From contig CM114271.1 of NCBI GenBank assembly GCA_050084515.1, positions 11,780,001-11,844,000 on the forward strand: a stretch of 64,000 nucleotides of DNA, given 5' to 3'. Shown piece after piece: positions 8,788 through 54,165 of this stretch (the stretch's first letter is position 1; each line of letters opens with the position of its first letter). The DNA is from Blasia pusilla (lineage: Eukaryota). Below the pieces are notes generated by a model. The model was not told the DNA's origin. It ran no database searches and saw only the letters and a program-made list of their open reading frames with translations. A program made the translations under genes and the position numbers.

Positions 8788-9647
8788 TGTCGTGTGCATA
8801 CACATCACTGATCACATGCACACCACACAACATCGATCTTCCCAACATACGGGTAGATCCACACATATACAAGAAATAAACTCATGCATGTATATCGGGA
8901 CCGCACAACAAAATCTCACACGGCCAACTCCACTCTCGAATCTACATCGGCATATTGAGCCACATCCACCCTCCGCTATGAGGGAATCCCAACACTAGCA
9001 CCCTAGTTCCTACACACATCCATGCAACAGAGGTGCTCCAAAAGCTCAACATGAGAAATATGGCTTGGGAAAGCCATCTCTCCCCTCTTACAACCTTGGA
9101 AGGAGCCAAAAGGTTGGATGCCTAAATGTCTAGGCGATAATGATAGTATCTCTTACCTAAACCGGTGGCTAACTTTTTCTTAGGAATGGGAAAGAGGACT
9201 AAAATGGCCTCCATCCGGTGACTTTCGTGCACGGGTTATCGGATGATCATTGACTCGGTCAACGGGTCATCTGGATGACAATGACCAAATAATGAAATCT
9301 TTAGAAACGATGTTCCCAACGCAATGGACCTTTCGCCAACCTCATCGGGCACCTCAAGACCAAGTTACACCCAAAAGCCCGCTGACCCTCTATGTTCTTG
9401 CCACGAAAAAACTCTACTTGTTGTCTAACTAAGATGTGACAACTGTCGTGTGCATACACATTATTACACAATACACATGGTTGGTCATATCTGCACCACA
9501 CAACACTGATCTTCCCAACGTACGGGTAGATTCACACAATACAAGAAATGAACTCATGCATGTACATCAAGACCGTACAACCGCTCCCCTAGTTGGCAGT
9601 TGGGTCTCCCTAACTCAAGATAGCGCACGTTATATCTATCTGACATG
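8788..9647 (-). mobile_element. 3' end of older DNMT/PHD gypsy element (family 2): PPT about 9582-9590, B1 9444-9581, A2 8910-9441, B2 8788-8909
   Basis: 8788-8909 and 9444-9581 are direct repeats. On the minus strand the layout is AGGGGAGCG-GTTGTACGG...CACGACA-GT-TGTCACA...B2 ending CACGACA, as in the younger copies. The element continues after 21560. Confidence 0.8.
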
Positions 9648-10014
9648 TGTCATGACCATATGGATTATGTCGTAGAGTATAGTGTGCTAGTAGAGGCCAT
9701 ACCTTATGTAGGACCATAGTGGCTAGGTAGAGATGCGGTTTCATACATAGGGTTGGGGATTACTCAGTTGGGATGACTTTCCCAGTAGGACCCACTCTTA
9801 GGTTGGAGGATATAGTGTGGAGTGTACCCAAAGAAGAGTCAGTTCTTTGAGTTGAGCCTGTTGCGTTGGGAGTTAGCCTTGGTAGTGAGAAGAGCTCTTG
9901 GCTATGGTGTTTCCCGCAAGCTTCCACCTAGATTCTCCCATCGTGGTGTGGGTTTGGCTCGATTGTATGTGATTCTATACGTATTTTATGACAGTAGGTC
10001 TTTCACGGATTTCA
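9648..10014 (+). repeat. Terminal repeat A1 of copy 1 (367 bp, TG...CA)
   Basis: Direct repeat of 21084-21450, 18822-19100, 46041-46408 and 53688-54055. TATA-like TATAG at 9811 and initiator-like TCAGTT around 9841. Confidence 0.92.
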
Positions 10015-10025
10015 CTCAAAGAATT
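10015..10025 (+). promoter_or_regulatory. Putative self-priming primer-binding site (copy 1)
   Basis: CTCAAAGAATT directly follows A1 and is complementary (one G-U pair) to AGTTCTTTGAG at 9841-9851. No tRNA-type TGG PBS adjoins the repeat. Confidence 0.75.
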
Positions 10026-11512
10026 GGAGTAGATCGATTGTAGCTTCGATTGTGGATCAAGGATCTGGTTAGGGCTGATTGTGTACTCAGCCGTGGATGT
10101 TCGTGGCTTATGGCCTATGTTGTAGGTAAGAATCTGGTGCGTGGTTGGTTGGGAAAGAAGCGCCTTGCTGAGAGCTTTCCAACGTGCTTTAGATCGCCGG
10201 ATTTCGTCAAGGGAGTTGGAAGTTATCAAGGATTGAAGATTCTGGTTCGTGTTCGACGGTTTTCTGATGTGGAGAGCTTGGAGTGCAAAAGCTCTGTTGA
10301 AGTTCATCCAGATCGGGTAAGAGGTTCCTATTGCTACTTGTATTGTGATCTCATGTGAATCTATCTGCTCGAGTGTGTGGAGCGTTGTGGATTTCTGCGT
10401 GCATGAAATCTGGGGAGCGGCTGCTGGATTTGCGATTCGGAGGTGTATGGACAGCAAGTTTGTTTGATTTTTAGCTCGGAGTACAGAGCTCGGTTGTAGC
10501 TGATTTTTTGTGGAGAGATAGCTATGGTGGTCAATTGAATTCTGGTTGAAATAGATTTAATTTTGGTTTAGGATTTGTGGAGTAAGTTCAGATCGAAATT
10601 TTGTGGACTAGCTCAAGGTTTGGCTATGGTGGACAACGGATCGGAGGGGCTGGTTGGTTGGTGACTCGTTCATTGTTGGAGATGCCTATCCCATTGGGGG
10701 CGCCCTGATTGGGCCTCTCTCCATAGCGAAGCATGGCGATAGGGGCATGTCTCGACGTTTCGAGGCTTCGAGGCAACTCGTGGTAGCTCGGGGCGAGTGG
10801 GCGTGAGAGGCGGAGTAAGGAGCAAGGAGCAAGCAAGCAAGCTTGCTTACTTGGGCGTGAGGCAGTTTTTGCAGGATTTGTGATTTGAGTGTTGCATAAC
10901 TGGTCACCCATCTTTGGGCTATTCTGCCTGGAAGACCCTTAACTGTTGAGTTCTTAACTAAGCTAGTGTACACACTGGTGTAGCTCATTTGGTGCTGTTT
11001 GGAGAGGTGTTAGGCGCTTTATGCATCTCAGGTTTTTGGTTGATGGACCTCAAGCGTATAGTACGGTGTAGCCTCTCCATGCAGGTGATATTTTCAGGTG
11101 CTGCGAGTCCGACAAGCACGTCATCGACCCGCGGCGGAGTAGCTATTGCGTTAGAATTTTGTGGTGGGTTCTGTGGATTCAGGGGGTGCCACGTTTGGTG
11201 GATTTTGTTACCTTGATTTCCATTTGCGATTGGAGGGTTGTTGTTGGACTTCATATGTTTGGATCCCCTCCATCGTTGCTTCTTGCTTGCGCGCCCATTG
11301 TTAGGGTTGACGCTGATTTCCAGAGTAGTGTTACTCCTGTGTGCTACCGATAGTGAGGCTGGAGTGATGACCAGTAGACTGTGGGAGGCTTCTTGTGGTG
11401 ATGACAAGTTAGGTTGCGTACACCCATAGCTAGTAGAGCTAGAATATTATAGCGACATCGACGTCACTTGGTTATTTGGTGGTGGTAATTTGGTGGTGGT
11501 GCGGCATCGGCG

Positions 11513-13010
11513 TTGGTCATCACGGAGCTGTCGGGAGGTCTGGTTGGGGACCGTGGTGCGGACAGTGGTGGTTTCACACGGAGTGGATTTAGGTATCGGC
11601 TACCTTTTCCACTTCCGACGGTTGATGAAGAGGAGGACGAGGGTGTTCCAAACACCGAGTCTTCTACGTTGTTATCGAGTGTTGCAGCTCCATTGATTTG
11701 GGATATGGACGGTGGATATGGGGCCATGAAGGGCCCACGACGATACTTGGGTGCAGTGGGCACCATTGAGTTGGAGGACTTCATGCAGGAGTTTGATACG
11801 TGGTGTGATATGCAGATGTTGCGGAACGCCACGTTGTTTACACCCTTCTTGGCTTGGAAGGGGTTGTTTCAGCACTTCGAGGGACCACCCATGGATGATT
11901 ACCATGAGTTTAGGAAGAACCATGTTGTTGAGATTGAGGCGTGGAGACAATATTGGTCTCCAGGCTATGTGTCTATCACCCATGGTGGTATTCGTAGTAG
12001 TGCTCCTACTATGCCATCCAGCCTGACGTTGAGTGGTACGAGTACGAGCCGGAGTGGGAGTACCAGTGGAGGTACCCATGGAGGTACCAGTGGGGGTACT
12101 AGTGGAGGTACTAGTGCCCCACCATCGTTCAGCCCGGTTGCAGAGTTCTTCAAGAGGTTGAAGAAGAACTATCACGGAGTGAAGACAGAGAAGTTGAGGA
12201 GTCTTCAGGAATTTGAGCGAAAGACTGGTAAGAGTCTTCGTGAGGCATATACTCCTATGCGACGCTTGATTTGATTACCTGGGTGTGACCGAGGCTCAGC
12301 GATCGATTTTGGTATGGGATCTTGGACGGAGAGTTGCGCCGCAGGGTACGTGATGCTACTCTTATGAGTGATGATTTACCCATATTGATCCATGTGTTTG
12401 CTCTATCTGAGAAGATTGAGCTTAACATGGTGAAGAAGAGAGTGGTGACATCCGCATTCAGTAGGGATACAACTACTACTTCTCGTGTTCAGCAGCCCAC
12501 CTTATAGTCTCGTAGTAGTGGTGGTGGTAGTAGTAGTGGGAGTCATGAGGGGTACACACGACCTCAGTCAGGTCCTAGAGGGACACTTGCGCAGAGACCA
12601 TTGCCTTCATTTGCTGCCCCGCAGCAAGGACAATCATGTTGGACATGTGGAGGTGATCATGTTAGGAAGTTTTGTCCCCAAGAGGATGGGAGACGGACTT
12701 TGGAGGATGGGCCTCAGTCGGCCCCAACTCAGTGTGATCATTGCGGGAGACCAGGTCATCCTCGAGAGCGTTGCTTTGATCTTCATCCAGAGTTGAGATC
12801 AGGCCGCGGCCGTGGTGGAGTAGCTCCGAGAGGCCGAGGTGGTAGAAGTGGTAGGGGTGGTAGAGGTGGACCAGTGGTTGGAGAGCCTACGGTGGCTACC
12901 CATACCACTACGACAGAGTCAGCTATGGCTGCCAGGATTGAGCAGTTGGAGCAGAAGTTGGCTACAATGGCTCGTATCCTGCATAGATCAGGTTCGGGAG
13001 CAGGGGCTTC
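11513..13010 (+). pseudogene. gag with two zinc knuckles (copy 1)
   Basis: CWTCGGDHVRKFC and CDHCGRPGHPRERC followed by an RGG-rich tract. 12-bp GGTS repeats near 12055-12115. Frameshifted. Confidence 0.85.
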
Positions 13011-13489
13011 CCCATTCATTCTTGTTGTCTGAGGTGCTTAGGACTCCATCCATGGTTCCTACGCAGCCTATTGAGCCGAAAGTGGGGACTGAGGCATCTA
13101 CATCGCGTGTAGTAGACACGGATGCAAAGATCAATGCAGATGTGCGGATGGCAACTTCAGTGTTGGGATCCCCATTATTTTCGGCCACGGAGCTGATGGC
13201 TTTAGGAGTTGACTTAGCTCATGTATTTCAGCTAGCAGTCACGTTGTGTGAACGTGGGGGTGTTACTGCTACACGTGCTAAGGTGGATGAGGGTATTTCC
13301 GTGGAGCGACCCCCTATGTCAGGTGTAGCATTGAGTACCTATGCTACTTGGCAGGCAGTAGCGGCGAAGATGGATGCATTACCAGCCCGGCCAGCCATTG
13401 ATCGTGAGAGGCTTACACCTGGTGTATGTATGTTGGACAAACGGAGTGGGATATTTCGACTGGTGAGTCCTACATGACAGGTGTATAGA

Positions 13490-13790
13490 CCAGATAGAGT
13501 CTTGTTAGACTTTGGTGCCCAACCTTTGATGTTGGGAAAGGCGGCATGTATTGGTTTGGCTATTCGAAGGTAAGAGCTTGAGCCTTGCCCATTCTAGATT
13601 CAAACATCACTTGGAGGTGCCAATGATAGGTCTCAATTCATGACACGGGAGAAGTTCTCTGTACAGTTGAGACCAGATCATGCGATTGATAGCTCTCGGT
13701 TCGGAGTACCCGCAATGGTCACATCAGCCGAGTCGTATGATGTACTAGTTGGAGGAGCAGTATTATACCCGATGGGTTTTCAGTTGGATT
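13490..13790 (+). pseudogene. Retroviral-type aspartic protease (copy 1)
   Basis: RVLLDFGAQPLMLG (LDSGGQPLML in the older relative near 58950) and C-terminal YDVLVGGAVL. Confidence 0.75.
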
Positions 13791-14212
13791 ATTGGACTGA
13801 GACAACGTCTTATAGACCTGGTTGGCAGTCTGGGGATGGACGTATGAGCCAAGTTCCTATGAGATTTATTTATGAGGCTCGACCAGGAGGGTCTTCCCCA
13901 ACGGTGTTAGCATCTGTGGCTGGTTTTAGTGGAGTAGTCACTTGGCTAGGAGACTTTTTGGAGGGTAATGTTTCTGCTATGGATTCTCTTGTGCACGAGG
14001 AGGTAGAGGAGGTCCCTAGTTTTGCAGCAATGGCATCCTCATCGTTGGATGTGCCACTTTGGAGTTCAGGCGGTGCACTACGGCAGGAGGCTTGGTGTGA
14101 GGCTGTTATACCTCACGAGGAAGAGGAGGCCCCACTGCGGACTCCTACTTTTGGTCTAGTTGGGTTATCCCCTTTGGATACTACACCCATTGTATGGCAG
14201 TATCCGCCGGAG

Positions 14213-15180
14213 GGCATTTGTGTGTTAGATCTCTTTGGTGGGATTTGCACTGGTTTGGCTGCAGTGTTGCAGGTCGGTATTCCTTTGCGGAGATACGTGG
14301 ATGTGGAGCGAGATGAGACGGCCCAGAGAGTCTCATCCCGACATATTGGTCAGTTGATGCGGAGATATCCTGAGTTGTTTCCGCCATCAGCTATTCGTGG
14401 GTACCAGCGTGCTTTGCCGTCACACATTGCATTGTTGGGGGCGTAGGACCTTGAGAGGGTTGGTCCTGTGGATTTGGTGATTGCAGGATGGCCATGTCAG
14501 GGTCATACGCGTGCTGGTCGTGGTGAGGGATTACACGACCCTAGGTCTTGATTGTTTTGGGAGATATTACGGGTGTTACGACATCTTCAGGTTCATCAGG
14601 CACGTGGTCCAGCTTACATTCTGAAGAATGTTCCATTGTTGGATGACACTCGGACCCGGATGATGGCGAGTGTTCATGAGGTGCGGTCTTGGATTGGACC
14701 AGCGGTGTTGTTGGATATAGCGCGAGTTGGCTCGCGTGCACATCGTCCACGCTTGTGGTGGACAAACTTGTTGCCTAGGGAGGTTCTACGTCGAGCATAT
14801 GATGCAGTGCAGCGGGATCCTTGCCTTACAGTGGATAGTGTCTTGGATACTGGGCGACTTTCTCAGGTGGTGAGGGTTATTGATCGGTCATCCATGGTAG
14901 TGGTGAACCGTGTGGGCCAGCCTAGGATGGCACTACCCACATTTGTGAGTTTTCCATCGTTACATGCCTACAGGGAAGGTGGTCACGGGCTTGTATGGGA
15001 TTCTCATGTGCGACAGTTGATGGAGACTAACACTGATGAGAGAGAGAGCGTGCGATGGGATTTGCTACTGGTGTGAAAGTGGTTACTTCCATTTCCGAGG
15101 CTTCACGACGTCATGTGTTGGATCAGGCCATGGACCTAAATTGTTTGACTTGGATTTTGAGTCTTGGTTTGGCCGAGCAG
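14213..15180 (+). pseudogene. DNMT3-like C5 cytosine DNA methyltransferase domain within the polyprotein (copy 1)
   Basis: Motif I VLDLFGGICTG, II VERD, IV DLVIAGWPCQG, VI YILKNVP (ENV in copy 2), VIII AHRPRLWWTNL, IX-X ERE..MGFATG...SRRHVLDQAMD. Confidence 0.92.
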
Positions 15181-15449
15181 CGTTGACTTTGGACTATGTC
15201 TGTGGGTCTTCCCCTTGTGATGAGCTCGATGGCTACCGGGATGGTAGAGGCATCGGCTGGGGGCGAGGAGAGTAGTATTTTGCATCCTTGGAGTAAATGG
15301 GACGTAATGGCTGGGCATGTGGAGTTGGTTGCTCATGCTAGTGGAGGAGTTATTTGCTCAGATGATGGTGTAGGTAAGGGTGTACCATCTTGTGAGGGGG
15401 TTGCGTAGTAGCCAATGGCATCGTCCTCTCCCTCTAGTGTGCCAATGGA

Positions 15450-18300
15450 GGAGACTTGGGAGCCATTACTAGGGCCCAAGCTTACGGGAGGTGAGAAACG
15501 ACGCTTGACACAGTTCCTACGTGCTTATAGGAGTTGTTTTGCCTTTAGCATGAAGGAGTTGGGTGCTCTGGTTGGACCCGGTATACGGATTGATTTGGCT
15601 AGTGATACGCCAATCTTTTGTCGTCCCTACCAATATAGTGATATGGAGAGGGAACTGATTTAGAGTAGGACGTTTGACCTTTTGGAGGCTGGATTAGTGG
15701 AATTGTCGCATGGAGAGTATGCATCAGCCAGTGTCATGCCTGCTAAAAAGGATATGCATGGCAACTACACGGATAGGCGGATGTGTGGAGATTACCGTCC
15801 TATCAATCGGCAAACCAAGGCCGATAGGTATGCCATGCCTACACCTAAGGAGATCTTTGATGTGGTGGGACAAGAAAAGATTTTCAGTACTTTGGATCTT
15901 TGGGCAAGATACCATCAATTGCCGATTCAGGAGAGTGACAAGGCCAAGACAACATTTTGGGGTGTCAACTCTCATGGCCAGGATTGTTTGTACCAGTGGA
16001 AATTCTTACCCTTTGGGTTGAAGAATGCACATGCCGAGTTTCAGAGAGTGATGGACAGGATCCTAGCAGGGTTGGATTTTGTTCGGTGTTACATTGATGA
16101 TATCTTGGTGTTGTGTAACACGGTGGAGGAGCATCAGATACATTTGCAGATTATTTTTGAGTTGTTGAAAGCTCATGGTCTAGGTTTGCATCCAGGAAAG
16201 TGTAAGTTCTTCCATGAGGATGTTGAGTACTTGAGTCATGTGATCTATCCAGGTGGTTTGGGAGTTCAGCAAGCAAAGGTGGAGGCTATTGCACTTATTC
16301 CGCGTCCGCTAGATGTGAGTAGAGTTCGGGCATTCATGGGATTGGCGAACTACTATCGGAGGTATGTGAAGGGATTTAGTGTTATGGCAAAGCCTTTGAA
16401 CCAATTGCTGAAATTAGATCAAAAGTGGCACTGGGGAGATGATCAGGAGAGAGCTTTTGTGGAGCTCAAGGCCTTGTTGGTGGCGGCGCCTATCTTGAGG
16501 AGACCTATCAGAGGGCGCCCATTTCAGTTACACACTGATCGGAGTAGGTTGAGACTTGGAGCGGTGTTGACACAACATGATGATGAGCATATGGAGTTTG
16601 TGGTGGCCTATGCAAGTCGTTCCAATAATGTAACGGAGTCGCGCTATAGTTCATATGAGGGAGAGTGCTTGGCAGTAGTGTGGGCTATGGCACACTTTAA
16701 GTGTTACTTGTTTTGCACACCGTTTACCCTTGTTACTGATCACCAGCCGCTCAAGTGGTTGATAGAGTCTGACAAGCTTACAGGGAAGCTTGCACGGTGG
16801 GCTCTTATCTTACACGAGTATGACTTCCAGGTGGTACATAGATCTGGAGTTGCCAACCTTGATGCTGAGGGGGTTAGTAGGAACCCATGTACTAGCCAAG
16901 AGGATGCAACTGGGTCTAGATGGCATGGCGAGGTTGATGAGGAGATGGTGCCAGGTTGGCATGCATCCGCCTTTTTATGTTGGTTAGGGGTGGACTCTAG
17001 TATGGACGACCACATGACATCTTACTCTAGTCAAAGGGTAGATGGCCAACCTTCAGATCATAAGGTTGGAGATGGTGGTACAGATCAGCGTGATATTCAT
17101 GATGATGCGTTGGTGTTGGAATTCCTACGGACCAGTAGGGTGCCAAGCATAGTGAGTGCCAAGGAGCGAGACCCTGTTCTTCAATGTGCTAAGAGGTATC
17201 AATTGGAGGGAACACATATTCTCCGTGTGTGGGAGGATGGTAGAGTACGAGTAGTGCCGCATTTGGCTCAGAGAGAGCGCATTGTGCAACATGCCCATGA
17301 GGAGTTGGGACATTTTGGGGTAAAGCGTACGTATAGCTTACTCCTTGGTCAGTATTGGTGGCGTGGCATGCATACTCAAGTGCAGCAGTTGGTGTCACGT
17401 TGTATGGTTTGTGACCAGGTGAGGGCATCATTCAATGCCCCTACACCACAGTTACACCCCTTGCCTATTATGGGGTTGGATTACAGTTAGAGTGTGGACT
17501 TTTGGACCGTTACGTTGACCGTTGGTATGCGACATCATCGATATGTGTTGGTGATGGTGGAGCACTTCTCCAAGTAAATTGAGTTGGTGGCATTATCTGA
17601 CAAGGCAAGTGAGGGAACGACATATGCGTTTCTTGATAGAGTGCTTACTCATTTTGGTGCACCAGCTAAAGTGCTGACCAACCAGAGTACAGAGTTTCAG
17701 GGTGAGTTTCAGGTCTTGTGTGACAAGGCGTTGATTGATCATCGGACCACGTCTCGAGATCATCCAGAGGCGGATGGTTTGGCTGAGCGTGTGGTTCAGA
17801 CGGTAAAGAGGGCATTGCGCAAGTATGGCCTACAGAAGGGGCATCTTGGAGATTGGGATATTCAGTTGCCATGGTTAGCCATGGGATATAGGTTCAATCT
17901 CCAAGCATCCTTGGCTTCCTTCTCACCTTATTTTCTGTTATATAGTCGAGATCCAGACTTGCCAACATCAATTCGTCGGGAGTCTAGTGAGGTGGTGAAC
18001 CTTGATGACCCAAAGATGTGGATGAGAGTGTGTTTTCAACGGGCAGAGCTCTTTTGGGAGAGTTATGCCAACAACCTTTGAGAACCTTGCCATTACTCAA
18101 CACAGGGATACGTTGGGGTATGCAACCATTCAGGGTGGAGGTTATCGACCATCGATTCGTAGGTTCCATGTGGGGGACTATGTCTATTTGCAGCAGATTG
18201 CACCGACAACGTTGGATGTGTCGGCAGGCCGCACTATTTTACGAGTGGGCGAGATGTTAGCTTATGGAGTTCTCATGTTGGAGGGTTGTGATGGAGTTGT
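15450..18300 (+). pseudogene. Reverse transcriptase, RNase H and DDE integrase (copy 1)
   Basis: RT: RMCGDYRPIN, LPFGLKNA, YIDDIL. RNase H: FQLHTD, YEGECLAVVWA, TDHQPLKWL. Integrase: HHCC finger HEELGH...CMVC, SVDF, VLTNQSTEF, HPEADGLAERVVQTVK. Gypsy order RT-RH-INT. Confidence 0.95.
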
Positions 18301-18397
18301 TTGGAAGGACCATGTGCGTAATTGTGCGCCATGTCATCTTCCAAATGTGGATGGTACTGTTGACCCAAGCTTAGCCATGATACGTGCTAGTTTGAGG

Positions 18398-18538
18398 TGC
18401 ATGTTGTGTGGATCTGCTGGTAACGCAATCCGTATATTGGTGTGTGATCGGTGTTCTAGGGGTTGGCACATGATGTGTTTGACTCCACATATGGATGTTG
18501 TTCCTATTGGAAGGTGGGCTTGTCCTCGATGTACTTAG
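18398..18538 (+). other. PHD finger (C4HC3) at the integrase C-terminus (copy 1)
   Basis: CMLCGSAGNAIRILVCDRCSRGWHMMCLTPHMDVVPIGRWACPRC*. Confidence 0.92.
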
Positions 18539-18713
18539 GAGAGGTAGATGACTTGATCTTTGCGTGATATGGATTACAGATAGGCGACTAACGATGGGGC
18601 AACCTAGCAACCGGCCTTATGATTCGTGCACCCAAGAAGGTGTATAGCATGTAATAGATATATATAGGGCTACCTAGGAGTTAGAGGGACCTAACCGCCA
18701 GTTAGGGGGGCGA

Positions 18714-19206
18714 GTTGTGGTACACTTGTGTTTGTGTATGCTCTCGTCTATATTATGTATGTATGTGACTATGGTATGTCAGCGATGTATGCTGTATGAC
18801 GATGTGGATTTGCACGACAGCAGTCATGACCATACGGATTATGTCGTAGAGTATAGTGTGCTAGTAGAGGCCATACCTTACGTAGGACCGTAGTGTCTAG
18901 GTAGAGATGCGGTTTCATACATAGGGTTAGGGGTTACTCAATGAGGGTGACTTTTCCAGTAGGGCCCGCTCTTAGGTTGGAGGATATAGTATGGAGTGCA
19001 CTCAAAGAACTGTTAGTTCTTTGAGTTGAGCCTGTTGCCTTGGGAGTTAGCCTTGGTAGTGAGTAGAGGTCTTGGTTGTGTTATGACTGTAGGTCTTTTA
19101 GTTATGGTACACTTGTGTATGTGTATGCTCTCGTCTATATTATGTATGCATGTGAGTATGGTATGTCAGCGATGTATGTTGTATGACAATGTGGATTCGC
19201 ACAACA
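18714..19206 (+). repeat. Internal B-A-B block: B 18714-18819, GC, A 18822-19100 (internally deleted), B 19101-19206
   Basis: Preceded by PPT AGGGGGGCGA. The sequence variant differs from A1 of this copy. Confidence 0.9.
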
Positions 19207-20213
19207 TTCTCCCTTTCAATAAGGAGTGCTGCTCTTTGCTTGGTGGTTAGATCTGGGAAGATACGGATAGCAGAATTTTTGAGGACTACTTTACTTTGGA
19301 GGATGACCAACCTCATTTCCATCGCTGGTCCGCGTTGTGAGGGATCAAATTGTACCAACATTGGCGTTGGTCGGTCCCCTATTCCTTTCCCAAGTCTGAT
19401 CCGTGTGAAGGTGACTGTTGGTGTGACCTTGAGAGTTGTGAAGACTTTCTCTTGCAAAACTGAATTATAGTCTTCTTCCTTGGAAAAGTGTAGTCCCATG
19501 ATAACTAAATTGAGTTCTTTGGTTTTCCTATCTTGGATTTCTAGGACCCTATCTGCTTCCTCTTTTGCTACCTCTTTGGCTACCTGTGTTGCAACCTCCG
19601 TGATTTGTGTTGAGGTAGTGTGCTTGCCCAGTACTTCAGTCCAGGCTCTAAGAGGATTTGCAGGGCTATTCCTTGTTAAACAATACTCTTGCATTGCTTT
19701 CCCAAGCTCAGTGTTATCCTCTTTGAAGCAGGCATCCAAGTCCTTCTTCAATTGCATGTTTTCAGCCCTCAAAGCGATCAACTCTAATTCCAGAGTTGTC
19801 TTATGAGCCGTCCATTCGAGGAGATTTGATTCCTCGGTGGACATCCATCTACCCTGCTCTTCTTTTGATGCCTGCATCATTGTATTCCATGCCAACATCT
19901 GGTTGGCCTGAAAGCTTTCCCATTTTCCTTCTAGTTCAGAGAACCTTCTAGTCATGGATGCCACTTCCAGATATGGTATAACCTCTGTTGAATGTGTGAC
20001 AGATGCATGGAGTCATTCCTTGTCACAGTGCCTCATTTTTTTCCCGACATAGTGGCGAGAGTTTGGGGCGATCAATCTCCGTGAGCCATTTGATCTCACG
20101 GATCGTCCATTGTCTCTACTCTTCATTTGCTTGTGGGAAAGATCCTTGACACAGGTCGTGTCTTGGACCTCCTCCGGTGAGGTTTCTAACGCTGGTTGTT
20201 CTGTGGTAGTCAT
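19207..20213 (-). pseudogene. LINE ORF1-like fragment (coiled coil plus RRM-like domain), 3'-truncated
   Basis: Coiled-coil stretch followed by KELNLVIMGL...RIRLGK...RPTPMLVQF...KVVLKNSAIRIFPDLT, the pattern of L1/CR1-type ORF1 proteins. Confidence 0.7.
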
Positions 20214-20515
20214 GGGTGCAGTGTTTACTCGATGTAGTGGTCGATGTGCTCAAGCAGTGGGAATGGGGAAAACAATTAGATAGGGTGTGCTTTACTCCAT
20301 AGAAACCATAGTCCCATGTATGGAGTCAGAGGGAGGTCAGAGCTTGAGAATCGTCTCAACATCACTGGCTTTTGCCCGTTCCATGGTTAGGCAGGATCGT
20401 CCAGGGAGGTGCAGCCCGATTTTGCTGGGAGTTCCTGGTCCGTGAGTAGAGAGAAGGGTATAAAGTAGGGAGACTCTGAAAACGGGGTTGGAATTTGACA
20501 GAAAAGTTGGACCAT

Positions 20516-20688
<173 letters not shown>

Positions 20689-20692
20689 TTGA

Positions 20693-21556
20693 TGTCTATG
20701 TTGGTGTGTGATCGATGTTCTAGGGGTTGGCACATGATGTGTTTGACTTCACGTATGGATGTTGTTCCTAGTGGAAGGTGGGTATGTCCTCGATGTATTT
20801 AAGAGAGGTAGATGACTTGATCTTTGCATGATATGGATTACAGATGTGCGACTAACGATGGGGCAACCTAGCACCCGACCTTCTGATTCGTGCATCCACG
20901 AAGGTGTATAGCATGTAGTAGATGTATAGGGCTACCACAGGAGTTAGAGGACCTAACCGCCGATTAGGCCTGAGAGTTGTGGTACACTTATGTTTGTGGA
21001 TGCTCTCGTCTATGTTATGTATGTATGTGAGTATGGTATGTCAGCGATGTATGTTGTATGACGATGTGGATTCGCACGACAGCTGTCATGACCATACGGA
21101 TTATGTCGTAGAATATAGTGTGCTAGTAGAGGCCATACCTTATGTAGGACCGTAGTGGCTAGGTAGAGATACGGTTTCATACATACGGTTGGGGGTTACT
21201 CAGTTGGGATGACTTTCCCAGTAGGGCCCGCTCTTAGGTTGGAGGATATAGTGTGGAGTGCACCCAAAGAACAGTTAGTTCTTTGAGTTGAGCCTGTTGC
21301 GTTGGGAGTTAGTCTTGGTAGTGAGTAGAGCTCTTGGCTATGGTGTTTCCCGCAAGCTTCGACCTAGATTCTCCCATCATGGAGTGGGTTTGGCTCGATT
21401 GTATGTGATTCTATACGTGTTTTATGACAGTAGCTCTTTCACGGATTTTAGTTGTGGTACACTTATGTTTGTGGATGCTCTCGTCTATGTTATGTATGTA
21501 TGTGAGTATGGTATGTCAGGGATGTATGTTGTATGACGATGTGGATTCGCACGACA
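20693..21556 (+). repeat. Second 3' end of copy 1: half PHD, 3' UTR, B1 20976-21081, GC, A2 21084-21450, B2 21451-21556
   Basis: Repeats about 18433-19206. A2 shares diagnostic bases with A1 (TTGGGATGACTTTCCC, TATAGTGTGG, CCCAAAG). Followed by the TSD. Confidence 0.92.
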
Positions 21557-44800: not shown

Positions 44801-44834
44801 AAACCAAAACAAGGCAGAAAACTTCTCTCTAAAG

Positions 44835-45270
44835 TTACCCATGATCTTAATAGGTCATCCTTGACCTCTTACGATTGTCCTCCCATCTCCTCAAAGTCAC
44901 CCAACGGATACTCACCAATCCATCCTAAAAGATGTGACATGCTCTTATTGAGAGCTAGACCCAATACTTGGTTAAGACAAGACTAGTCCAGATGTCACAT
45001 TTAGAATATGCATCTGCCACAATCATACTTGCCAAGTAGGATTTGCATAGCAAATGGACGGATAGGCAAATATGTGGAGATTACCGACATACCAATTAGT
45101 AGAAAAAATCCAATGGATAGGGCATGACCACTCTTGAGGAGATCTTTGATAATATTGGGCACGCAAAGGACTTCAATTTTATAGGCCTCTTAGCCACATA
45201 TTATTAGTGCCTATTAGAATGGAGGATATACAAAAGACGACATTTTGGGACATCGATCCTCACGATATTG
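44835..45270. mobile_element. Fragments of the same gypsy lineage: A-like repeat (44835-44939, minus) and RT relic (about 44950-45270, plus)
   Basis: 44835-44939 resembles 45390-45496. EYASATIILAK...WTDRQICGDYR at about 45004-45088. Confidence 0.65.
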
Positions 45271-45339
45271 ATTAGTTGTATTATAAGCTATGAAAGTCAA
45301 CGATGCCACAAATGATAACTTACAATAAATAGTAAGTTC

Positions 45340-46036: not shown

Positions 46037-46408
46037 CCTTTGTCATGACCATACGGATTATGTCGTAGAGTATAGTGTGCTAGTAGAGGCCATTCTTTAT
46101 GTAGGACCGTAGTGGCTTGGTAGAGATGCGGTTTCATACATAGGGTTGGGGGTTACTCAGTTGGAGGTGACTTTTCGAGTAGGGCCCGCTCTTAGGTTGG
46201 AGGATATAAGGTGGAGTGCACTCAAAGAACAGTTAGTTCTTTGAGTTGAGCCTGTTGCGTTGGGAGTTAGCCTTGGTACTGAGTAGAGCTCTTGGCTATG
46301 GTGTTTCCCGCAAGCTTCGACCTAGATTCTCCCATCGTGGAGTGGGTTTGGCTCGATTGTATGTGATTGTATACGTGCTTTATGACAGTAGGTCTTTCAC
46401 GGATTTCA

Positions 46409-46419
46409 CTCAAAGAACT
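46409..46419 (+). promoter_or_regulatory. Putative self-priming primer-binding site (copy 2)
   Basis: CTCAAAGAACT is the exact reverse complement of AGTTCTTTGAG at 46235-46245, which starts 30 nt after TATAAG (46205). Confidence 0.8.
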
Positions 46420-47889
46420 GGAGTAGATCGATGGTAGCTTCGATTGTAGATCAGTAGGATCTGGTTAGGGCAAATTGTGTACTCAGCCGTGGATGTTCGT
46501 GGCTTGCGGCCTATGTTGGAGGTGTGAATCTGGTGTGTGGTTGATTGGAAAAGAAGCGCCTTGCTGAGAGCTTTCCAACGTGCTTTAGATCGCCAGATTT
46601 CGTCAAGGGAGTTGGAAGTTATCAAGGATTGAAGATTCTGGTTCGTGTTCGACGGTTTTCTGATGTGCAGAGCTTGGAGTGCGGAAGCTCTGTTGAAGTT
46701 GATCCAGATCGGGTGAGAGGTTCCTGCTGCTACTTGTATTGTGATCTCATGTGAAGCTATCTGCTCGAGTGTGTGGAGCGTTGCGGATTTCTGCGTGCAT
46801 GAAACTTGGCGGAAGTGATGTCGGATTTACGATTCTGGAGGTGTATGGACAGCAAGTTTGTCTGATTTTTAGCTCGGAGTAAAGAGCTTGGTTGTAGCTG
46901 ATTTTTTGTGGAGAGATAGCTATGGTGGTCAATTGAATTTTGGTCGAAACAAAGTTGATTTCGGTCACGGATTTGTGAAGTAATTGCTGATCGAAATTTC
47001 GCAGACTAGCTCAAGGTCTGGCTATGGTGGACAACGGATCGGAGGGTCTGGTTGGTTGGTGACTTGTTCATTGTTGGAGACGCCTATCCCATTGGGGGCG
47101 CCCTGGTTGGGCCTCTCTCCATAGCGAAGCATGGTGAGGCTTCGAGGCAACTCGTGGTAGCTCGGGCGAGTGGGCGAGTGGGCGTGAGAGACGGAGTAAG
47201 GAGCAAGGAGCAAGCAAGCAAGCTTGCTTGCTTGGGCATGAAGCAATTTTTGCAGGATTTGTGATTTGAGTGTTGCATAACTGGTCACCCATCTTTGGGC
47301 TATTCTGCCTGGAGGACGCTTATCTGCTGAGTTCTTAACTATGCCAATGTACACACTGTTGTAGCTCATTTGGTGCTGTCCGGAGATGTGTTAGGCGCTT
47401 TATGCATCTCAGGTTTTTGGTTGATGTACCTCTAGCGCATAGTACGGTGTAACCTCTCCATGCAGGTGATATTTTCAGGTGCTACGAGTTCGACTAGCAC
47501 GTCATCGACCCGCGGCGGAGTAGCTATTGCGTTAGAATTGTGTGGTGGGTTTTATGGAGTCAGGGGGCACCACGTTTGGTGGATTGTGTTACCTTGATTT
47601 CCATTTGCGATTGGAGGGTTGTCGTTGGACTTCTTGTGTTTGGATCCCCTCCATCGTTGCTTCTTGCTTGCGCGCCCATTGTTAGGGTTGACGCTGATTT
47701 CCAGAGTAGTGTTACTCCTGTGTGCTACCGATAGTGAGGCTGGAGTGATGAGCAGTAGACTGTGGGAGGCTTCCTGTGGTGATGACAAGTTAGGTTGCGT
47801 ACACCCATAGCTAGTAGAGCTAGAATATTATAGCGACATCGACGTCACTTGGTTATTTGGTGGTGGTAATTTGGTGGTGGTGCGGCATC

Positions 47890-50280
47890 GGCGTTGGTCA
47901 TCACGGAGTCATTTGTCGGGTGGTGGTTGGGGACCGTGGTGCGGACAGTGGTGGTTTTACACGGAGTGGATTTAGGTATCGGCTACCTTTTCCACTTCCG
48001 ACAGTTGATGAAGAGGAGGACGAGGGTGTTCCAAACACCGAGTCTTCTACGTTGTTATCGAGTGTTGCAGCTCCATTGATTTGGGATATGGACGGTGGAT
48101 ATGGGGCCATGAAGGGCCCACGACGATACTCGGGTGCAGTGGGCACCATTGAGTTGGAGGACTTCATGCAGGAGTTTGATACGTGGTGTGATATGCAGAT
48201 GTTGCAGAACGCCATGTTGTTTACACCCTTCTTGGCTTGGAAGGGGTTGTTTATGCTCTTGGAAGGACCACCCATGGATGATTACCATGAATTTAGGAAG
48301 GACCATGTTGCTGAGATTGAGGAGTGGAGACAATATTGGTCTCTGGGCTATGTGTCTATCACCCATGGTGGTATTGGTAGTAGTGCTCCTACTATGCCAG
48401 CCAGCCCGACGTTGAGTGGTACGAGTACGAGCCGGAGTGGGGGTATCAGTGGAGGTACTAGTGCCCCACCATCGTTCGGCCCGGTTGCAGAGTTCTTCAA
48501 GAGGTTGAAGAAGAACTATCAGGGAGTGAAGACGGAGAAGTTGAGGAGTCTTCAGGAATTTGAGCGAAAGACTGGTGAGAGTCTTCGTGAGGCATACACT
48601 CGTATGCGAGGCTTGTTTTCGGTTACCCAGGATGTGACTGAGGATCAGGCACTCCAATTTTGGTATGGGATCTTGGAGAGAGATTTGCGCCGTAGGGTAC
48701 GTGATGCTACTCTTATGAGTGATGATTCACCCACATTGACCCGTGTGTTTGCTCTATCTGAGAAGATTGAGCTTAACATGGTGAAGGAGAGAGTGGTGAC
48801 ATCCGCATTTAGTAGGGATACAACTACTACTTCTTGTGTTCAGCAGCCCACCTCACAGTCTCGTAGTAGTGGTGGTGGTAGTAGTAGTGGAAGTCGTGGG
48901 GGGTACACACGACCTCAGTCAGGTCCTAGAGGGACACTTGCGTAGAGACCATTGCCTTCATTTGCTGCCCCGGCAGGGCGATCATGTTGGACATGTGGAG
49001 GTGATCATGTTAGGAAGTTTTGTCCCCAAGAGGATGGGAGACGGACTTTGGAGGATGGGCCTCAGTCGGCCCCGACTCAGTGTGATCATTGCGGGAGACC
49101 AGGTCATCCTCTAGAGCGTTGCTTTGATCTTCATCCAGAGTTGAGATCAGGCCGCGGCCGTGGTGGAGTAGCTCCGAGAAGCCGAGGTGGTAGAAATGGT
49201 AGGGGTGGTAGAGGTGGACCAGTGGTTGGAGAGCCTACGGTGGCTACCCATACCACTACGACAGAGTCAGCTATGGTTGCCTGGATTGAGCAGTTGGAGC
49301 AGAAGTCGGCTACAATGGCTCGTATCCAGCATAGATCAGGTTCGGAAGCAGGGGCTTCCACCTCTTATGGAGGGGATGATCTCTCTTATATGGCGAGTGC
49401 AAAGACAGTTGAGTTGAGGCATCAGTGCGATTCTGAGAGGAGCCACTCGAGCGTCAAAGCCATGTGGTGCTACTGTGGAGTTGGACCCACAGAGGGGTGA
49501 GGCTGGGAGGCAGGCTAGGCTTCCCCATTCATTCTTGTTGTCAGAGGTGCTTAGGACTCCATCCATGGTTCCTACGCAGCCTATTGAGCCGACAGTGGGG
49601 ACTAAGGCATCTACATCGCGTGTAGTAGACACGGATGCAGCATCCAATGCAGTATTGCGGATGGCAACTTCAGTGTTGGGATCCCCATTATTTTCGGCCA
49701 CGGAGCTGATGGCTTTAGGAGTTGACTTAGATCTTGTATTTCAACTAGCAGCCACGTTGTGTGAACGTGGGGGTGTTACTGCTACAGGTGTTGAGGTGGA
49801 TGAGGGTGTTGCGGTGGAGCCACCCTCTATGTCAGGTGTAGCATTGAGTACCTGTGCTACTTGGCAGGCAGCAGCGGCGAAGATGGATGCATTACTAGCC
49901 CGGCCAGACATTGATTGTGAGAGGCTTACACCTGGTGTATGTATGTTGGACAACCGGAGTGGGATCTTCCGATTGGTGAGTCCTACAAGACAGGTGTATA
50001 GACCAGATAGAGTCTTGTTAGACTTTGGTGCCCAACCTTTGATGTTGGGAAAGGCGGCATGTATTGGTTTGGGTATTCGGAGGTAAGAGCTTGAGCCTTG
50101 CCCATTCCAGATTCAAACATCACTTGGAGGAGCCAATGATAGGTCTCAATTCATGACACGGGAGAAGTTTTCTGTACAGTTGAGACCAGATCATGCGATT
50201 GATAGCTCCCGGTTGGGAGTATCTGCGGTAGTCACATCAGCCGAGTCGTATGATGTACTAGTTGGAGGAGCGATGTGTAC
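47890..50280 (+). pseudogene. gag and protease (copy 2)
   Basis: Near-identical to copy 1: two zinc knuckles, RGG tract, RVLLDFGAQPLMLG. Confidence 0.85.
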
Positions 50281-50741
50281 CCGATGGGTTTTGGTTGGAT
50301 TATCGAGAGACAGCGTCTTATAGACCTGGTTGGAAATCCGGGGATGGACGTATGAGCCAAGTTCCTATGAGATTTATTTATGGGGCTCGACTAGGAGAGT
50401 CTTCCCCAATAGTGTTAGCATCTGTGGCTGGTTTTAGTGGAGTAGTCACTTGGCCATGAGACTTTTTGGAGGGTAATGTTTCTGCTATGGATTCTTATGC
50501 GCATGAGGAGGTAGAGGAGGTCCCTGTTTTTGCAGTCGTGGCATCCTCATTGTTAGATGTGCCACTTTGGAGTTCAGGCGGTGCACTACGGCAGGAGGCT
50601 GATCGCCTAGTGCAGGAGGCTTGGTGTGAGGCTATTATACCTCACGAGGAAGAGGAGGCCCCACAGCGGACTCCTACTTCTGGTCCAGTTGGGTTATCCC
50701 CTTTGAATACTACACGCATTGTATGGCAATATCCGCTGGAG

Positions 50742-51715
50742 GGCATTTGTGTGTTAGATCTCTTTGGTGGCATTAGCACTGGTTTGGCTGTAGTGTTGCA
50801 GGCCCGTATTCCTGTGCGGAGATACGTGTATGTGGAGCGAGATGAGACGGCCCAAAGAGTCTCATCCTGACATATTGGTCAGTTGATGTGGAGATATCCT
50901 GAGTTGTTTCCGCCATCAACTATTCGTGGGTACCAACGTGCTTTTCCGTCACACATTGCATTGTTGGGGGCGTAGGACCTTGAGAGGGTTGGTCCTGTGG
51001 ATTTGGTGATTGTTGGATGGCCATGTCACGGTCATACACGTGCTGCTCGTGGTGAGGGATTACATGACCCTAGGTCTCGATTGTTTTGGGAGATGTTACG
51101 GGTGTTACGACATCTTCAGGTTCATCAGGCACGTGCTCAAGTTGACATTCTGGAGAATGTTCCATTGTTGGGTGACACTCGAACCCGGATGATGGCGAGT
51201 GTTCATGAGGTGCGGTCTTGGATTGGACCAGCGGTGTTGTTGGATACAGCGCGAGTTGGCTCGCGTGCACATCGTTTACGCTTGTGGTGGACAAACTTGT
51301 TGCCTAGGGAGGTTCTACGTCGAGCATATGATGCAGTGCAGCGGGATCCTTGCCTTACAGTGGATAGTATCTTGGATACTGGGCGACTTTCTCAAGTGGT
51401 GAGGGTTATTGATCGGTCACCCATGGCAGTGGTGAACCGTGTGGGCCAGCCTAGGATGGCACTACCCACATTTGTGAGTTTTTCCTCGTCACATGCCTAC
51501 AGAGAAGGTGGTCCGGGGCTTGTATGGGATTCTCATGTGCGACAGTTGGTGGAGCCTAACGCTGATGAGAGAGAGCGTGCGATGGGATTTGCTCTTTGGT
51601 GTGGCGTTGTTGCTTCTATTTCTCACGCTTCACGACGTCATGTGTTGGGTCAGGCCATGGACCTGAATTTTTTGACTTGGATTTTGAGTTTTGGTATGGC
51701 CGAGCAGCGTCGACT
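50742..51715 (+). pseudogene. DNMT3-like C5 methyltransferase domain (copy 2)
   Basis: VLDLFGGISTG, YVERD, DLVIVGWPCHG, ILENVP, AHRLRLWWTNL, ERERAMGF, SRRHVLGQAMD. Confidence 0.93.
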
Positions 51716-53265
51716 CCGAACTATGTCTATGGGTCTTCCACCCCTTGTAATGAGCTCGATGGCGACCGGGACGGTAGAGGCATCGGCTGGGGGCGAGGAG
51801 AGTAGTATTTTGCATCCTTGGAGTAAATGGGATGTAATGGTGGGCATGTGGAGTTGGTTGCTCATCTTTGGTGGAGGAGTTATTTGCTCAGATGATGGTG
51901 TAGGTAAGGGTGTACCATCTTGTGAGGGGGTTACGTAGCAGCCAATGGCATCGTCCTCTCCCTCTAGTGTGCCAATGGAGGAGACTTGGGAGCCATTTCT
52001 TGGGCCCAAGCTTACGGGAGGTGAGAAACGACGCTTGACACAGTTCCTACGTGCTTATAGGAGTTGTTTTGCCTTTAGCATGAAGGAGTTGGGTTCTCTA
52101 GTTGGACGCGGTATACGGATTGATTTGGCTAGTGATACGCCAATCTTTCGTCGTCCCTACCGATATAGTGATATGGAGAGGGACCTGATTCAGAGTAGGA
52201 CGTTGGACCTTTTGGAGGCTAGATTAGTGGAGTTGTCGCATGGAGAGTATGCATCAGCCACTGTCATGCCTGCTAAAAAGGATATGTATGGCAACTACAC
52301 GAATAGGCAGATGTGTGGAGATTACCATTCTATCAATCGGCAAACCAAGGCCGATAGGTATGCCATGCCTACACCTGAGGAGAACTTTGATGTGGTGGGA
52401 TAGGCAAAGATTTTCGGTACTTTGGATCTTCGGGCAGGATACATAGACCTGGAGTTGCCAACCTTGATGCCGATGGGTTGAGTAGGAACCCATGTACTAG
52501 CCAAGAGGATACAACTGGGGATAGATGGCATGGCGAGGTTGATGAGGAGATGGTGTCAGGTTGGCATGCATCCGCCTTTTTATGTTGGTTAGGGGTGGAC
52601 TCTAGTATGGAGGATCACATGATATCTTACTCTAGTCAGAGGGTAGATGGCCAGCCTTCAGATCCTAAGGTTGGAGATGGTGGTACGGATCAGCGTGATA
52701 TTCATGATGATTCGTTGGTGTTGGAGTTCCTACGGACCAGTAGTGTGCCAAGCATAGTGAGTGCCAAGGAGCGAGACCGTGTTCTTCAACGTGCTAAGAG
52801 GTATCGAGTGGAGGGAACACATATTCTCCGCGTGTGGGAGGATGGTAGAGTACGAGTAGTGCCACATTTGGCTCAGAGAGAGCGCATTGTGCGACATGCC
52901 TAGGAGGAGTTGGGATATTTTGGGGTAAAGCGTACATTTAGCTTACTCCTTGGCCAGTATTGGTGGCGTGGCATGCATACTCATGTGCTGCAGTTGGTGT
53001 CACGTTGTATGGTTTGTGACCGGGTGAGTCGTGTGGTTCAGACTCATGTTGGAGGGTCTAGAATCTAACACCTCGTGCACTTGTACAATAGTGTGGTTCA
53101 GACGGTGAAGAAGGCATTGCGCAAGTATCACACGTCTGACTCATGTTGGAGGGTCGTGATGGAGTTGTTTGGAAGGACGATGTGCATAATTGTGCGCCAT
53201 GTCATCTTCCAAATGTGGATGGTACTGTTGACCCAAGCTTAGCCATGATACGTGCTAGCTTGAGG

Positions 53266-53406
53266 TGCATGTTGTGTGGGTCTGCTGGTAACGCAGCCCG
53301 TATGTTGGTGTGTGATTGGTGTCCTAGGGGTTGGCACATGATGTGTTTGAATCCACGTATGGATGTTGTTCCTACTGGAAGGTGGGTTTGTCCTCGATGT
53401 TCTTAG
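53266..53406 (+). other. PHD finger (copy 2)
   Basis: CMLCGSAGNAARMLVCDWCPRGWHMMCLNPRMDVVPTGRWVCPRC. Confidence 0.92.
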
Positions 53407-54165
53407 GAGAGGTAGATGACTTGATCTTTGCATGATATGGATTACAGATGTGCGACTAACGATGGGGCAACCTAGCACCCGGCCTTCTGATTCGGGCACC
53501 CAAGAAGGTGTATAGCATTTAGTAGATGTATAGGGCTACCTGGGAGTTAGAGGGACCTAACCGCCTGTTAGGGGGGCGAGTTGTGGTACACTTGTGTTTG
53601 TGGATGCTCTCGTCTATGTTATGTATGTATGTGAGTATGGTATGTCAGCGATGTATGTTGTATGACGATGTGGATTCGCACGACAGCTGTCATGACCATA
53701 CGGATTATGTCGTAGAGTATAGTGTGCTAGTAGAGGCCATTCCTTATGTAGGACCGTAGTGGCTTGGTAGAGATGCGGTTTCATACATAGGGTTGGGGGT
53801 TACTCAGTTGGAGGTGACTTTCCGAGTAGGGCCCGCTCTTAGGTTGGAGTATATAAGGTGGAGTGCACTCAAAGAACAGTCAGATCTTTGAGTTGAGCCT
53901 ATTGCGTTGGGAGTTAGCCTTGGTACTGAGTAGAGCTCTTGGCTATGGTGTTTCCCGCAAGCTTTGACCTAGATTCTCCCATCGTGGAGTGGGTTTGGCT
54001 CGATTGTATGTGATTGTATACGTGTTTTATCACAGTAGGTCTTTCACGGATTTCAGTTGTGGTACACTTGTGTTTGTGGATGCTCTCGTCTATGTTATGT
54101 ATGTATGTGAGTATGGTATGTCAGCGATGTATGTTGTATGACGATGTGGATTCGCACGACACCTT

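Follow-up and report, generated by a model that had tools for sequence, protein, structure and literature searches.

Permuted terminal repeats in a methyltransferase-bearing Ty3/gypsy-type retrotransposon of Blasia pusilla point to integration at a site inside the reverse-transcription LTR

In LTR retrotransposons and retroviruses, the ends of the linear cDNA are the ends that become integrated, and circular forms are regarded as by-products. The window analysed here, a stretch of 64,000 nucleotides of Blasia pusilla DNA, contains at positions 46041-54161 (+ strand) a Ty3/gypsy-type element (copy 1) for which direct reading and a repeat search gave the arrangement A…PPT-B-A-B, i.e. one repeat of one kind at the 5' end, and a polypurine tract (PPT) followed by three repeats of two kinds at the 3' end. 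The question raised by this locus is how a copy with such an arrangement came to be inserted, and through which ends. The preliminary description of this DNA had proposed integration from a 2-LTR circle that is opened at a palindromic site inside the LTR, with loss of a dinucleotide.

Copy 1 starts with its sole 5' repeat, A1 (46041..46408), which begins with TGTCATG, is preceded by ...GGTCCTT and followed by CTCAAAGAACT, and in which sequence reading revealed a TATA-like box (GGATATAA; 46202-46209), a hairpin (CTCAAAGAAC/GTTCTTTGAG) and a putative self-primer (AGTTCTTTGAGT; 46235-46246). A putative primer binding site (PBS; ACTCAAAGAACT, 46408..46419), the exact complement of 46235-46246, leads into the internal region (46420..53569), as recognized by Pfam matches and by comparison with a second copy in the window (copy 2). 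The PPT (AGGGGGGCGAG, aggggggcgag; 53570..53580) lies directly 5' of B1 (TTGTGG...CACGACA; 53581..53685), with which the reverse-transcription LTR begins (105 bp; start of U3). B1 is followed by a GC spacer (53686..53687), by A2 (TGTCATG...GGATTTCA; 53688..54055), which comprises the remaining U3 with the promoter and then R and U5, by a single G as the U5/U3 joint (54056), and by B2 (54057..54161), which ends with CACGACA at the chromosome junction and was delimited by sequence reading and RNA depth; all of these features are on the + strand. A1 and A2 are 97.6% identical over 368 nt, and B1 and B2, spaced 476 apart, show one difference over 107 positions. Within each of the two window copies, the B1/B2 pair is more similar than the A1/A2 pair.

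The element is enclosed by a 4-bp target-site duplication, CCTT (46037..46040, from reading of the terminus; 54162..54165, from the terminus and from reads), with the junctions ...GGTCCTT/TGTCATG on the left and CACGACA/CCTTCC on the right. The empty target site with a single CCTT is represented by reads from uninterrupted paralogues of the flank, which run from ...ACGCACATGGT straight into CCTTCC. The B/A junction of copy 1 is CACGACA-GC-TGTCATG, and its two halves match the integrated ends exactly, apart from the GC, which separates the juxtaposed integration ends (ACA-GC-TGT) and is missing from the integrated termini. The A/B junction is TTTCA-G-TTGTGG, the same letters as TTTCA-GT-TGTGG in the preliminary description, whose A…B-A-B layout and junction sequences were borne out to the base. 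The palindrome that it had placed at the B/A junction is present in copy 1 (GACAGCTGTC); the perfect 10-bp form is not conserved in relatives, in which the spacer may be GT, AT or AC.

The PPT before the first B and the priming site after A, from which the course of reverse transcription had been deduced earlier, hold up. Starting from the last base of A1, 12 nt form an exact complement to a sequence about 33 nt downstream of the TATA-like box, and in the predicted fold both the minimum-energy and the centroid structure pair the putative RNA 5' region with the PBS (z = -2.24, a modest value); copy 2 retains this pairing by way of a G-U pair. Self-priming has been characterized by at least 10 nt, starting 0-5 bp past the 5' repeat, that are complementary to a stretch within the repeat (PMC6317226), and the 12-nt complement of copy 1 falls within this definition. 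The complement and the predicted fold suggest that the element is self-primed in the manner of Tf1. The PPT before the first B is conserved in every relative, as CTAGGGGGGCGAG. Together, the PPT and the putatively self-priming PBS define the reverse-transcription LTR as B-A.

The extent of the transcript was examined with two stranded RNA runs labelled as this species, mapped on 53100-54400. Sense RNA reached a depth of 93-230 over the tail, the PPT, B1 and the start of A2; B1 was covered at a depth of 93-174, compared to 0.55-2.9 for B2, and within A2 the depth dropped from about 147-194 in a bin near its start (53716-53759) to 27/18 in its final bin. At the end of A, both RNA and DNA reads continue into the PBS (CTCAAAGAACT...), and among the loose ends listed, 26 reads in run X22 continue from the end of A as CTCAAAGAACTAGAGTAGATCG, which is the leader that follows A1. 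Reads that run into the start of A from its upstream side differ from one another (agreement about 0.5), as is expected for many different chromosomal flanks. The sole flagged cluster of RNA starts (27 molecules at 53849, in one run) is located about 33 nt upstream of the position predicted from self-priming. Since the RNA covers B1 and A2 and hardly B2, R lies within A, the RNA ends in A2 and B2 is not templated from RNA; each new copy therefore has to obtain its B2 from the LTR that reverse transcription generates, and the A/B joint has to be a U5-U3 joint that is formed anew in each cycle.

Self-comparison of the window revealed copy 2 (9648..21556, + strand), a member of the same family that is about 92-94% identical to copy 1. 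It comprises a 5' A (9648-10014), a first B (20977-21081) followed by the spacer GC, a 3' A (21084-21449) and a last B (21452-21556), all on the + strand, and is enclosed by the target duplication CATG (9644-9647 and 21557-21560). Copy 2 is interrupted by an extra tail-B-A'-B block (18433-19206, + strand), which contains a third B-A'-B end (18715-19206) finishing with ...CACAACA at 19206 and is followed by 1.5 kb of foreign DNA (19207-20696); a (GA)n run accompanies the extra block and the unrelated DNA before the true 3' end of copy 2, and a 290-aa minus-strand ORF within the foreign insert had no above-cut-off Pfam match. Copy 2 is itself inserted into a diverged relative (R1), of which the 3' end is located on the minus strand (8798..9590, read 9590-8798) and consists of the PPT AGGGGAGCGG, B, the junction CACGACA-GT-TGTCACA, A, and a B that ends ...GCACACGACA; a search of the window for the 5' A of R1 at word size 7 found none. 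In total, the window contains four 3' ends, all of which are B-A-B, and two 5' ends, both of which are A alone.

For a wider census of ends, the 170-aa integrase tail of copy 2 was used as the query, and the best 80 of 172 metagenome relatives were analysed. Many of the metagenome loci are one locus assembled repeatedly; reference pieces of A and B were mapped and the loci were clustered by their flanks, two of them (L059 and L066) being merged for a common flank, and 17 loci that represent a contig end or a truncated copy are outside the classification. The metagenome copies examined are all degenerate, with 383 aa as the longest ORF through the tail. Among these best 80 of 172, the main family provided 41 distinct 3' ends after flank clustering. 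The commonest type, with 27 of the 41, is the tail, the PPT and a single B that runs into unrelated flanks and ends at the ACA of B (BLAST match within 2 nt of the final ACA in 23 cases, 5 nt short in four), followed by B-A-B/flank in eight; the others are a deletion derivative ending A-B/flank (one), ends with an inverted A (two; B-A, hairpin, reverse complement of A 1-180, ...CATGACA, with different flanks) and ends interrupted by other insertions (three). The LTR ends as defined by reverse transcription (A/flank or flank/B) served as integration ends in 0 of the 41. Canonical flank/B or A/flank ends, as well as A-B-A...B and solo A-B forms, were also sought wherever A or B matched in the window and in the 80 loci, and none were found. 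Elsewhere in the Blasia genome, canonical ends may occur at low frequency. Across independent assemblies, the metagenome relatives contain 12 distinct B-A-B ends.

Two 5' ends from these loci and the two in the window are all flank/A-PBS (4/4). The preliminary description had predicted two alternative forms, A-B-A...B and A...B. The former was seen at 0 of the 4 available 5' ends, a sample with very little power; the latter was found together with its duplication in a complete, internally deleted A...B element (L009; ACTA/ACTA), and its 3' end is of the commonest type. A further internally deleted A...B element (L006) has GGTT/TGTT at its ends. The target duplications of the four elements for which both ends are available are thus perfect in three (CCTT, CATG, ACTA), and match in 3 of 4 bases in the fourth (GGTT/TGTT).

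Four loci of diverged families provided three B-A-B ends and one single-B end, with the B/A junctions CACGACA-GT-TGTCATG, CACGACA-AT-TGTTAAG and CACAACA-AC-TATCAAG; besides R1, three further diverged families keep B-A-B and CACRACA-NN-TRTC. Among distinct main-family loci, the B/A spacer is GC in eight, AC in three and AT in one, and it is GT, AT and AC in the diverged families. What is conserved at B/A is ...CACRACA, two bases and TGTC..., and not the palindrome itself. The A/B joint in independent copies is TTT(C/T)A-(G/A)-TTGTGG, with one extra base in L019 as the sole exception, and the DNA contigs contained no indel variant at the joint at the 10% listing threshold. Such uniformity agrees with a precise joining of U5 to U3.

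The internal region of copy 1 encodes gag, a C5 DNA methyltransferase (Dnmt), the start of the reverse transcriptase (RT), a remnant of the RNase H and integrase zinc finger, and a C-terminal PHD finger; it carries deletions and frame breaks, and the stretches matching copy 2 15912-16835 and 17423-18272 are gone. Gag has two CCHC knuckles (CX2CX4HX4C; read by eye), and the methyltransferase (PF00145), which is located upstream of RT, and the PHD finger (PF00628) were identified by Pfam profile search. In copy 2, one intact ORF contains RVT_1 (PF00078), RNase H (PF17917/PF17919) and Integrase_H2C2 (PF17921), in that order; copy 2, too, has a C-terminal PHD finger. The window's own integrase core is broken by a frame break and provided a half-domain rve match under the cut-off (E = 0.003); the rve core (PF00665) is above the cut-off in the relatives L069 and L015 and in P0017 and P0041. 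In L069, a single ORF immediately 5' of a B-A-B end contains both rve and PHD, and a 1991-aa environmental relative combines RT, RNase H, Dnmt, H2C2, rve and PHD in a single protein. No tyrosine recombinase (PF00589) was predicted in any of the 14 ORFs scanned in the two window copies. The closest named proteins are from Marchantia, Calypogeia and Sphagnum (liverworts, peat mosses), with 59-71% identity over the Dnmt part; no Klebsormidium nitens sequence was among the 45 matches of the Dnmt-part search, and a protein search with the Dnmt-region ORF returned no usable match.

The order RT, RNase H and integrase with an H2C2 finger, the DDE integrase core (via the relatives), and the TG...CA termini (TGTCATG...CACGACA) with a 4-bp target duplication are all features of Ty3/gypsy elements. 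Equal full LTRs at both ends, abutted by PBS and PPT, are not found: the 5' end is A only, the 3' end is B-A-B or a single B, and the PBS and PPT abut the end of A and the start of B, and not the integrated termini. The element is probably a Ty3/gypsy-type LTR retrotransposon with two kinds of 'LTR' that are out of register with each other, a Dnmt-like methyltransferase, a DDE integrase and a PHD finger.

This assignment shares one probability, which we estimate at roughly 60%, with the explanation as a whole, i.e. that the element inserts via the internal B/A site and that end-joined cDNA is the productive intermediate of the lineage. Canonical reverse transcription, self-primed just after A and with the PPT just before B and R in A, would generate a cDNA with B-A at both ends. 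The ends recognized by the integrase would be the start of A (TGTCATG...) and the end of B (...CACGACA), which are positioned head to head, as ACA-NN-TGT, 105 bp inside each LTR. As suggested by the known chemistry of retroviral-type integrases and by the termini, the integrase would nick 3' of each CA on opposite strands and leave the 2-base spacer as a 5' overhang that is then lost, and the processed ends would be joined to the target at positions staggered by 4 bp; such nicks on either side of the spacer in ACA-NN-TGT would account for the missing dinucleotide as well as for the 4-bp duplication. That the integrase would use a site inside the reverse-transcription LTR, and not the LTR ends, is well supported by the terminal sequences: the insertion at the B/A site with loss of a dinucleotide, as proposed earlier, agrees with the exact ends and with the 4-bp duplications.

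Cutting at both B/A sites of the linear cDNA, or at the single site of a 1-LTR circle, would generate A...B; since this form is obtainable from linear cDNA (left A start and right B end) or from a 1-LTR circle, it requires no 2-LTR circle, and since it is without a 3' R, it could not be reverse-transcribed further. A...B-A-B is the sole permutation that keeps promoter-R-U5-PBS at the 5' side and PPT-U3-R at the 3' side, and it needs a connection between the end of U5 and the start of U3, for which a 2-LTR circle opened at the B/A site of one LTR would offer the simplest solution. The 2-LTR circle is accordingly a putative intermediate, deduced only from the need for a U5-U3 joint. Its opening at random predicts A-B-A...B to be as frequent as A...B-A-B, for which the lack of A-B-A at the four 5' ends is a very weak test; a solo A-B unit, another by-product predicted by the circle model, occurred neither in the window nor in the loci. 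The inverted-A ends may have originated from plus-strand snapback on the R hairpin and subsequent cutting at the inverted B/A site, and their presence at two loci suggests that the enzyme recognizes its site anywhere within longer DNA. Of the earlier model, the layout, the reverse-transcription logic and the use of an internal site therefore stand, and the circle keeps its putative status. It was overstated in that integrase cutting of palindromic 2-LTR junctions is already documented for foamy virus and HIV-1 (PMC1180852, PMC1905944) and an A-coding-B-A-B layout of a Gypsy-Dnmt element is in print (a figure legend of PMC5890265).

Integration at the internal site could also make use of a U5-U3 joint that does not derive from circle ligation, i.e. 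from an end-to-end template switch of RT, which would occur as strand displacement finishes with the two cDNA ends together, or from a head-to-tail cDNA concatemer, from which the integrase would excise one unit plus one LTR. An RT-made joint is favoured by the high uniformity of the A/B joint, in which TTTCA and TTGTGG are separated by one base, G or A, in all independent copies but one, and by the lack of indel variants in the DNA contigs, as end-joining repair is expected to leave more ragged joints. However, precise joints are frequent in retroviral 2-LTR circles too, and the sample of joints, though unbiased by selection, is small; we consider this origin of the joint improbable. Rather less improbable, but still doubtful, is that all new insertions are A...B-A-B and that single-B copies arise later by B x B recombination or slippage, as solo LTRs do. 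The B repeats (105-113 bp) are only about 340-370 bp apart, and the window copies, which are young (B1/B2 99%), have B-A-B at four of four 3' ends, whereas the metagenome copies, with B1/B2 identities of 91-98%, are mostly single-B. In a comparison of terminal branches that omits L076 (first B partial), the median length was 0.051 for 26 single-B ends and 0.040 for eight B-A-B ends (Mann-Whitney p = 0.54), and the four shortest branches of both classes were all single-B, which leans against a late deletion; the ages of the two classes by distance to the majority sequence also showed no significant difference (p = 0.34). Late deletion would in any case concern the A...B form only and leave the origin of B-A-B unaffected.

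Two explanations would dispense with integrase action at an internal site altogether, and both appear very remote. The A-coding-B-A-B arrangement of split direct repeats is a hallmark of DIRS, Ngaro and PAT elements (figure legends of de Mendoza et al. 2018, PMC5890265), for which an RT-templated circle would be integrated by a tyrosine recombinase. This reading was rejected for the lack of a tyrosine recombinase in the 14 ORFs and the presence of a DDE integrase with an H2C2 finger, and it is also at odds with the 4-bp duplications, the TG...CA ends, the canonical PBS and PPT, and the untranscribed B2. A secondary accident at an ordinary B-A...B-A element, such as a nested or tandem insertion, an unequal crossover or an assembly error, might be suspected in a region that is a nest of retroelements and in which copy 2 is visibly rearranged. 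It was rejected by recurrence: the two window copies have base-exact ends with duplications of their own, the layout is found in 12 distinct metagenome loci and in four diverged families, and an ordinary B-A...B-A end was nowhere seen.

The integrated copies of this family record a rule other than that of canonical elements, with internal, templated ends, no use of the ends defined by reverse transcription at any of the 41 main-family 3' ends, and a sole heritable permutation, which includes the U5-U3 joint. Even more broadly, there may be a lineage of DDE-integrase LTR elements, from streptophyte algae to liverworts and mosses, that replicates obligatorily via end-joined cDNA (2-LTR circles) and a restriction-like cut at a templated att-att site in U3; for this wider claim, taken as a whole, we see the balance as even. 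If it is true, the circle that retrovirology treats as a 'dead end' would be the sole productive intermediate of this lineage, and split repeats as in the tyrosine-recombinase elements would have evolved here independently, under the same topological constraint. The element represents a natural and currently expressed system in which it may be tested whether end-joined retroelement DNA is an on-pathway substrate of a DDE integrase. The permuted layout also explains why a Gypsy element would resemble a DIRS element to annotation software, and LTR finders that expect two equal LTRs would mis-delimit or overlook such copies, of which the majority form, A...B, has no terminal repeats. Furthermore, the family bears a cytosine methyltransferase and a PHD finger of its own in bryophyte genomes, whereas transposon-borne Dnmts have been described as missing from land plants, tracheophytes among them (PMC6338049).

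The closest parallel in layout is KnitGypsy-Dnmt3 of Klebsormidium nitens, for which one figure legend gives a DIRS-like repeat arrangement with Gypsy domains (Fig. 4c; de Mendoza et al. 2018, Nat Commun 9:1341, PMC5890265). Like the Blasia element, it is a Gypsy LTR retrotransposon whose Pol includes a Dnmt domain and whose repeats follow the order A-coding-B-A-B, and the combination of Gypsy domains, a C5-Dnmt in Pol and this order, as drawn from the legend, is found in the Blasia element as well. The two are likened by description and not by sequence, however, and the main text of that paper, as far as at hand, gives no termini, duplications, PBS or PPT positions or mechanism. In the literature as available to us, in part as excerpts, this legend is the sole mention of the layout; no DDE-integrase LTR element that integrates in permuted form was found described therein, nor a mechanism for the Klebsormidium layout, and the supplements of the 2018 paper may hold termini and duplications.

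Elements of the DIRS order (Ngaro, PAT; SymbioDIRS-Dnmt3) share with the Blasia element the split direct repeats A1-internal-B1-A2-B2, of which the simplest reading is a whole circle opened inside the repeat. They differ in that they have a tyrosine recombinase and no target duplication, whereas the Blasia element has a DDE integrase, TG...CA ends, 4-bp duplications, a canonical PBS and PPT, and a B2 that is not transcribed. In priming, the Blasia element is similar to the Tf1/sushi/Tcn1-type elements, which have no tRNA-type PBS and in which at least 10 nt beside the 5' repeat are complementary to a stretch within the repeat (Neumann et al. 2019, PMC6317226); those elements have ordinary LTRs and chromodomains, in contrast to the permuted repeats, PHD finger and Dnmt of the Blasia element.

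For the predicted cut, precedents are found among retroviruses: the integrases of foamy virus (PFV; Delelis 2005, PMC1180852) and of HIV-1 (Delelis 2007, PMC1905944) cut the palindromic LTR-LTR junction of 2-LTR circles. As predicted for the Blasia element, a DDE integrase there cuts internally, in the manner of a restriction enzyme, where inverted CA...TG ends are juxtaposed, and thereby generates 3'-processed ends. In PFV and HIV-1, however, the palindrome is the ligated U5/U3 joint itself, and cutting it regenerates the usual linear DNA and a provirus that is not permuted, whereas in the Blasia element the cut would take place at a templated site in U3 with a 2-bp spacer, and the ligated joint would be left uncut and carried along in a circularly permuted insert.

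Within both full copies of the element, copy 1 (46041-54161, plus strand) and copy 2 (9648-21556, plus strand), the two B repeats of the 3' end are nearly identical: across 107 positions, B1 and B2 show a single difference in copy 1 (53581-53685 against 54057-54161) and likewise a single one in copy 2 (20977-21081 against 21452-21556). Between A1 and A2 there are 9 differences over 368 positions in copy 1 and approximately 20 over 366 in copy 2. The low divergence between B1 and B2 may reflect homogenisation of these closely spaced repeats, or B may decay more slowly.

In metagenome loci carrying relatives of the element, B-A is followed by CTCAAAGAACTATGTTCTTTGAG and then by the reverse complement of A 1-180 (L002/L004, 3246-3878; L003, 1168-1798). 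At two loci these ends terminate at the start of the inverted A and the flanks differ between the loci; they look like integrated products of snapback cDNA. In the RNA data, reads (3 + 7) link position 318 of A backwards to its position 30 (53717/54005), a junction not present among the DNA contigs, and 27 RNA molecules start at 53849, in one run only.

Copies 1 and 2 (junctions 46040/54162 and 9647/21557) were each inserted in the 3' tail of a diverged relative, in opposite orientation to it; copy 1 lies immediately ahead of the PHD finger of the relative R2, and copy 2 immediately past the stop codon of the relative R1. This shared placement may be due to chance within a nest of elements or may indicate a target preference. 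At the decayed 3' end of R2, a 120-bp sequence resembling the start of A occurs twice (72% identical), once on either side of a plus-strand RT fragment (44816-45494).

Copy 2 also contains a second tail-B-A'-B block with unrelated DNA and a (GA)n run (18433-20696). The A' repeat of this block has a deletion of about 110 bp. After the block come 1.3 kb of unrelated DNA with a minus-strand ORF of 290 aa (19143-20012), for which a Pfam search gave nothing above cut-off, and the (GA)n run (approximately 170 bp). The entire arrangement looks like a repair copied from a different locus.

In independent metagenome loci, the B repeat is broken by an identical foreign end, GTCGCAACCCCACTTTGG..., at B position 56 (L014) and at the start of B2 (L019/L021); this is another mobile element, with at least two landings in the same short region of B. 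Unrelated to the element, a tandem array of units of about 62-64 bp (75-81% matches) lies within AT-rich sequence (62467-62977).

Upstream of RT, the element encodes a C5 cytosine DNA methyltransferase (Dnmt) domain (copy 1, 50460-51938; copy 2, 13598-15076), whose closest named homologues, from Marchantia, Calypogeia and Sphagnum, are labelled as host 'hypothetical proteins'. In P0041, a distant environmental relative of 1991 aa, the Dnmt domain is instead located between RNase H and integrase; its position in Pol thus varies among lineages.
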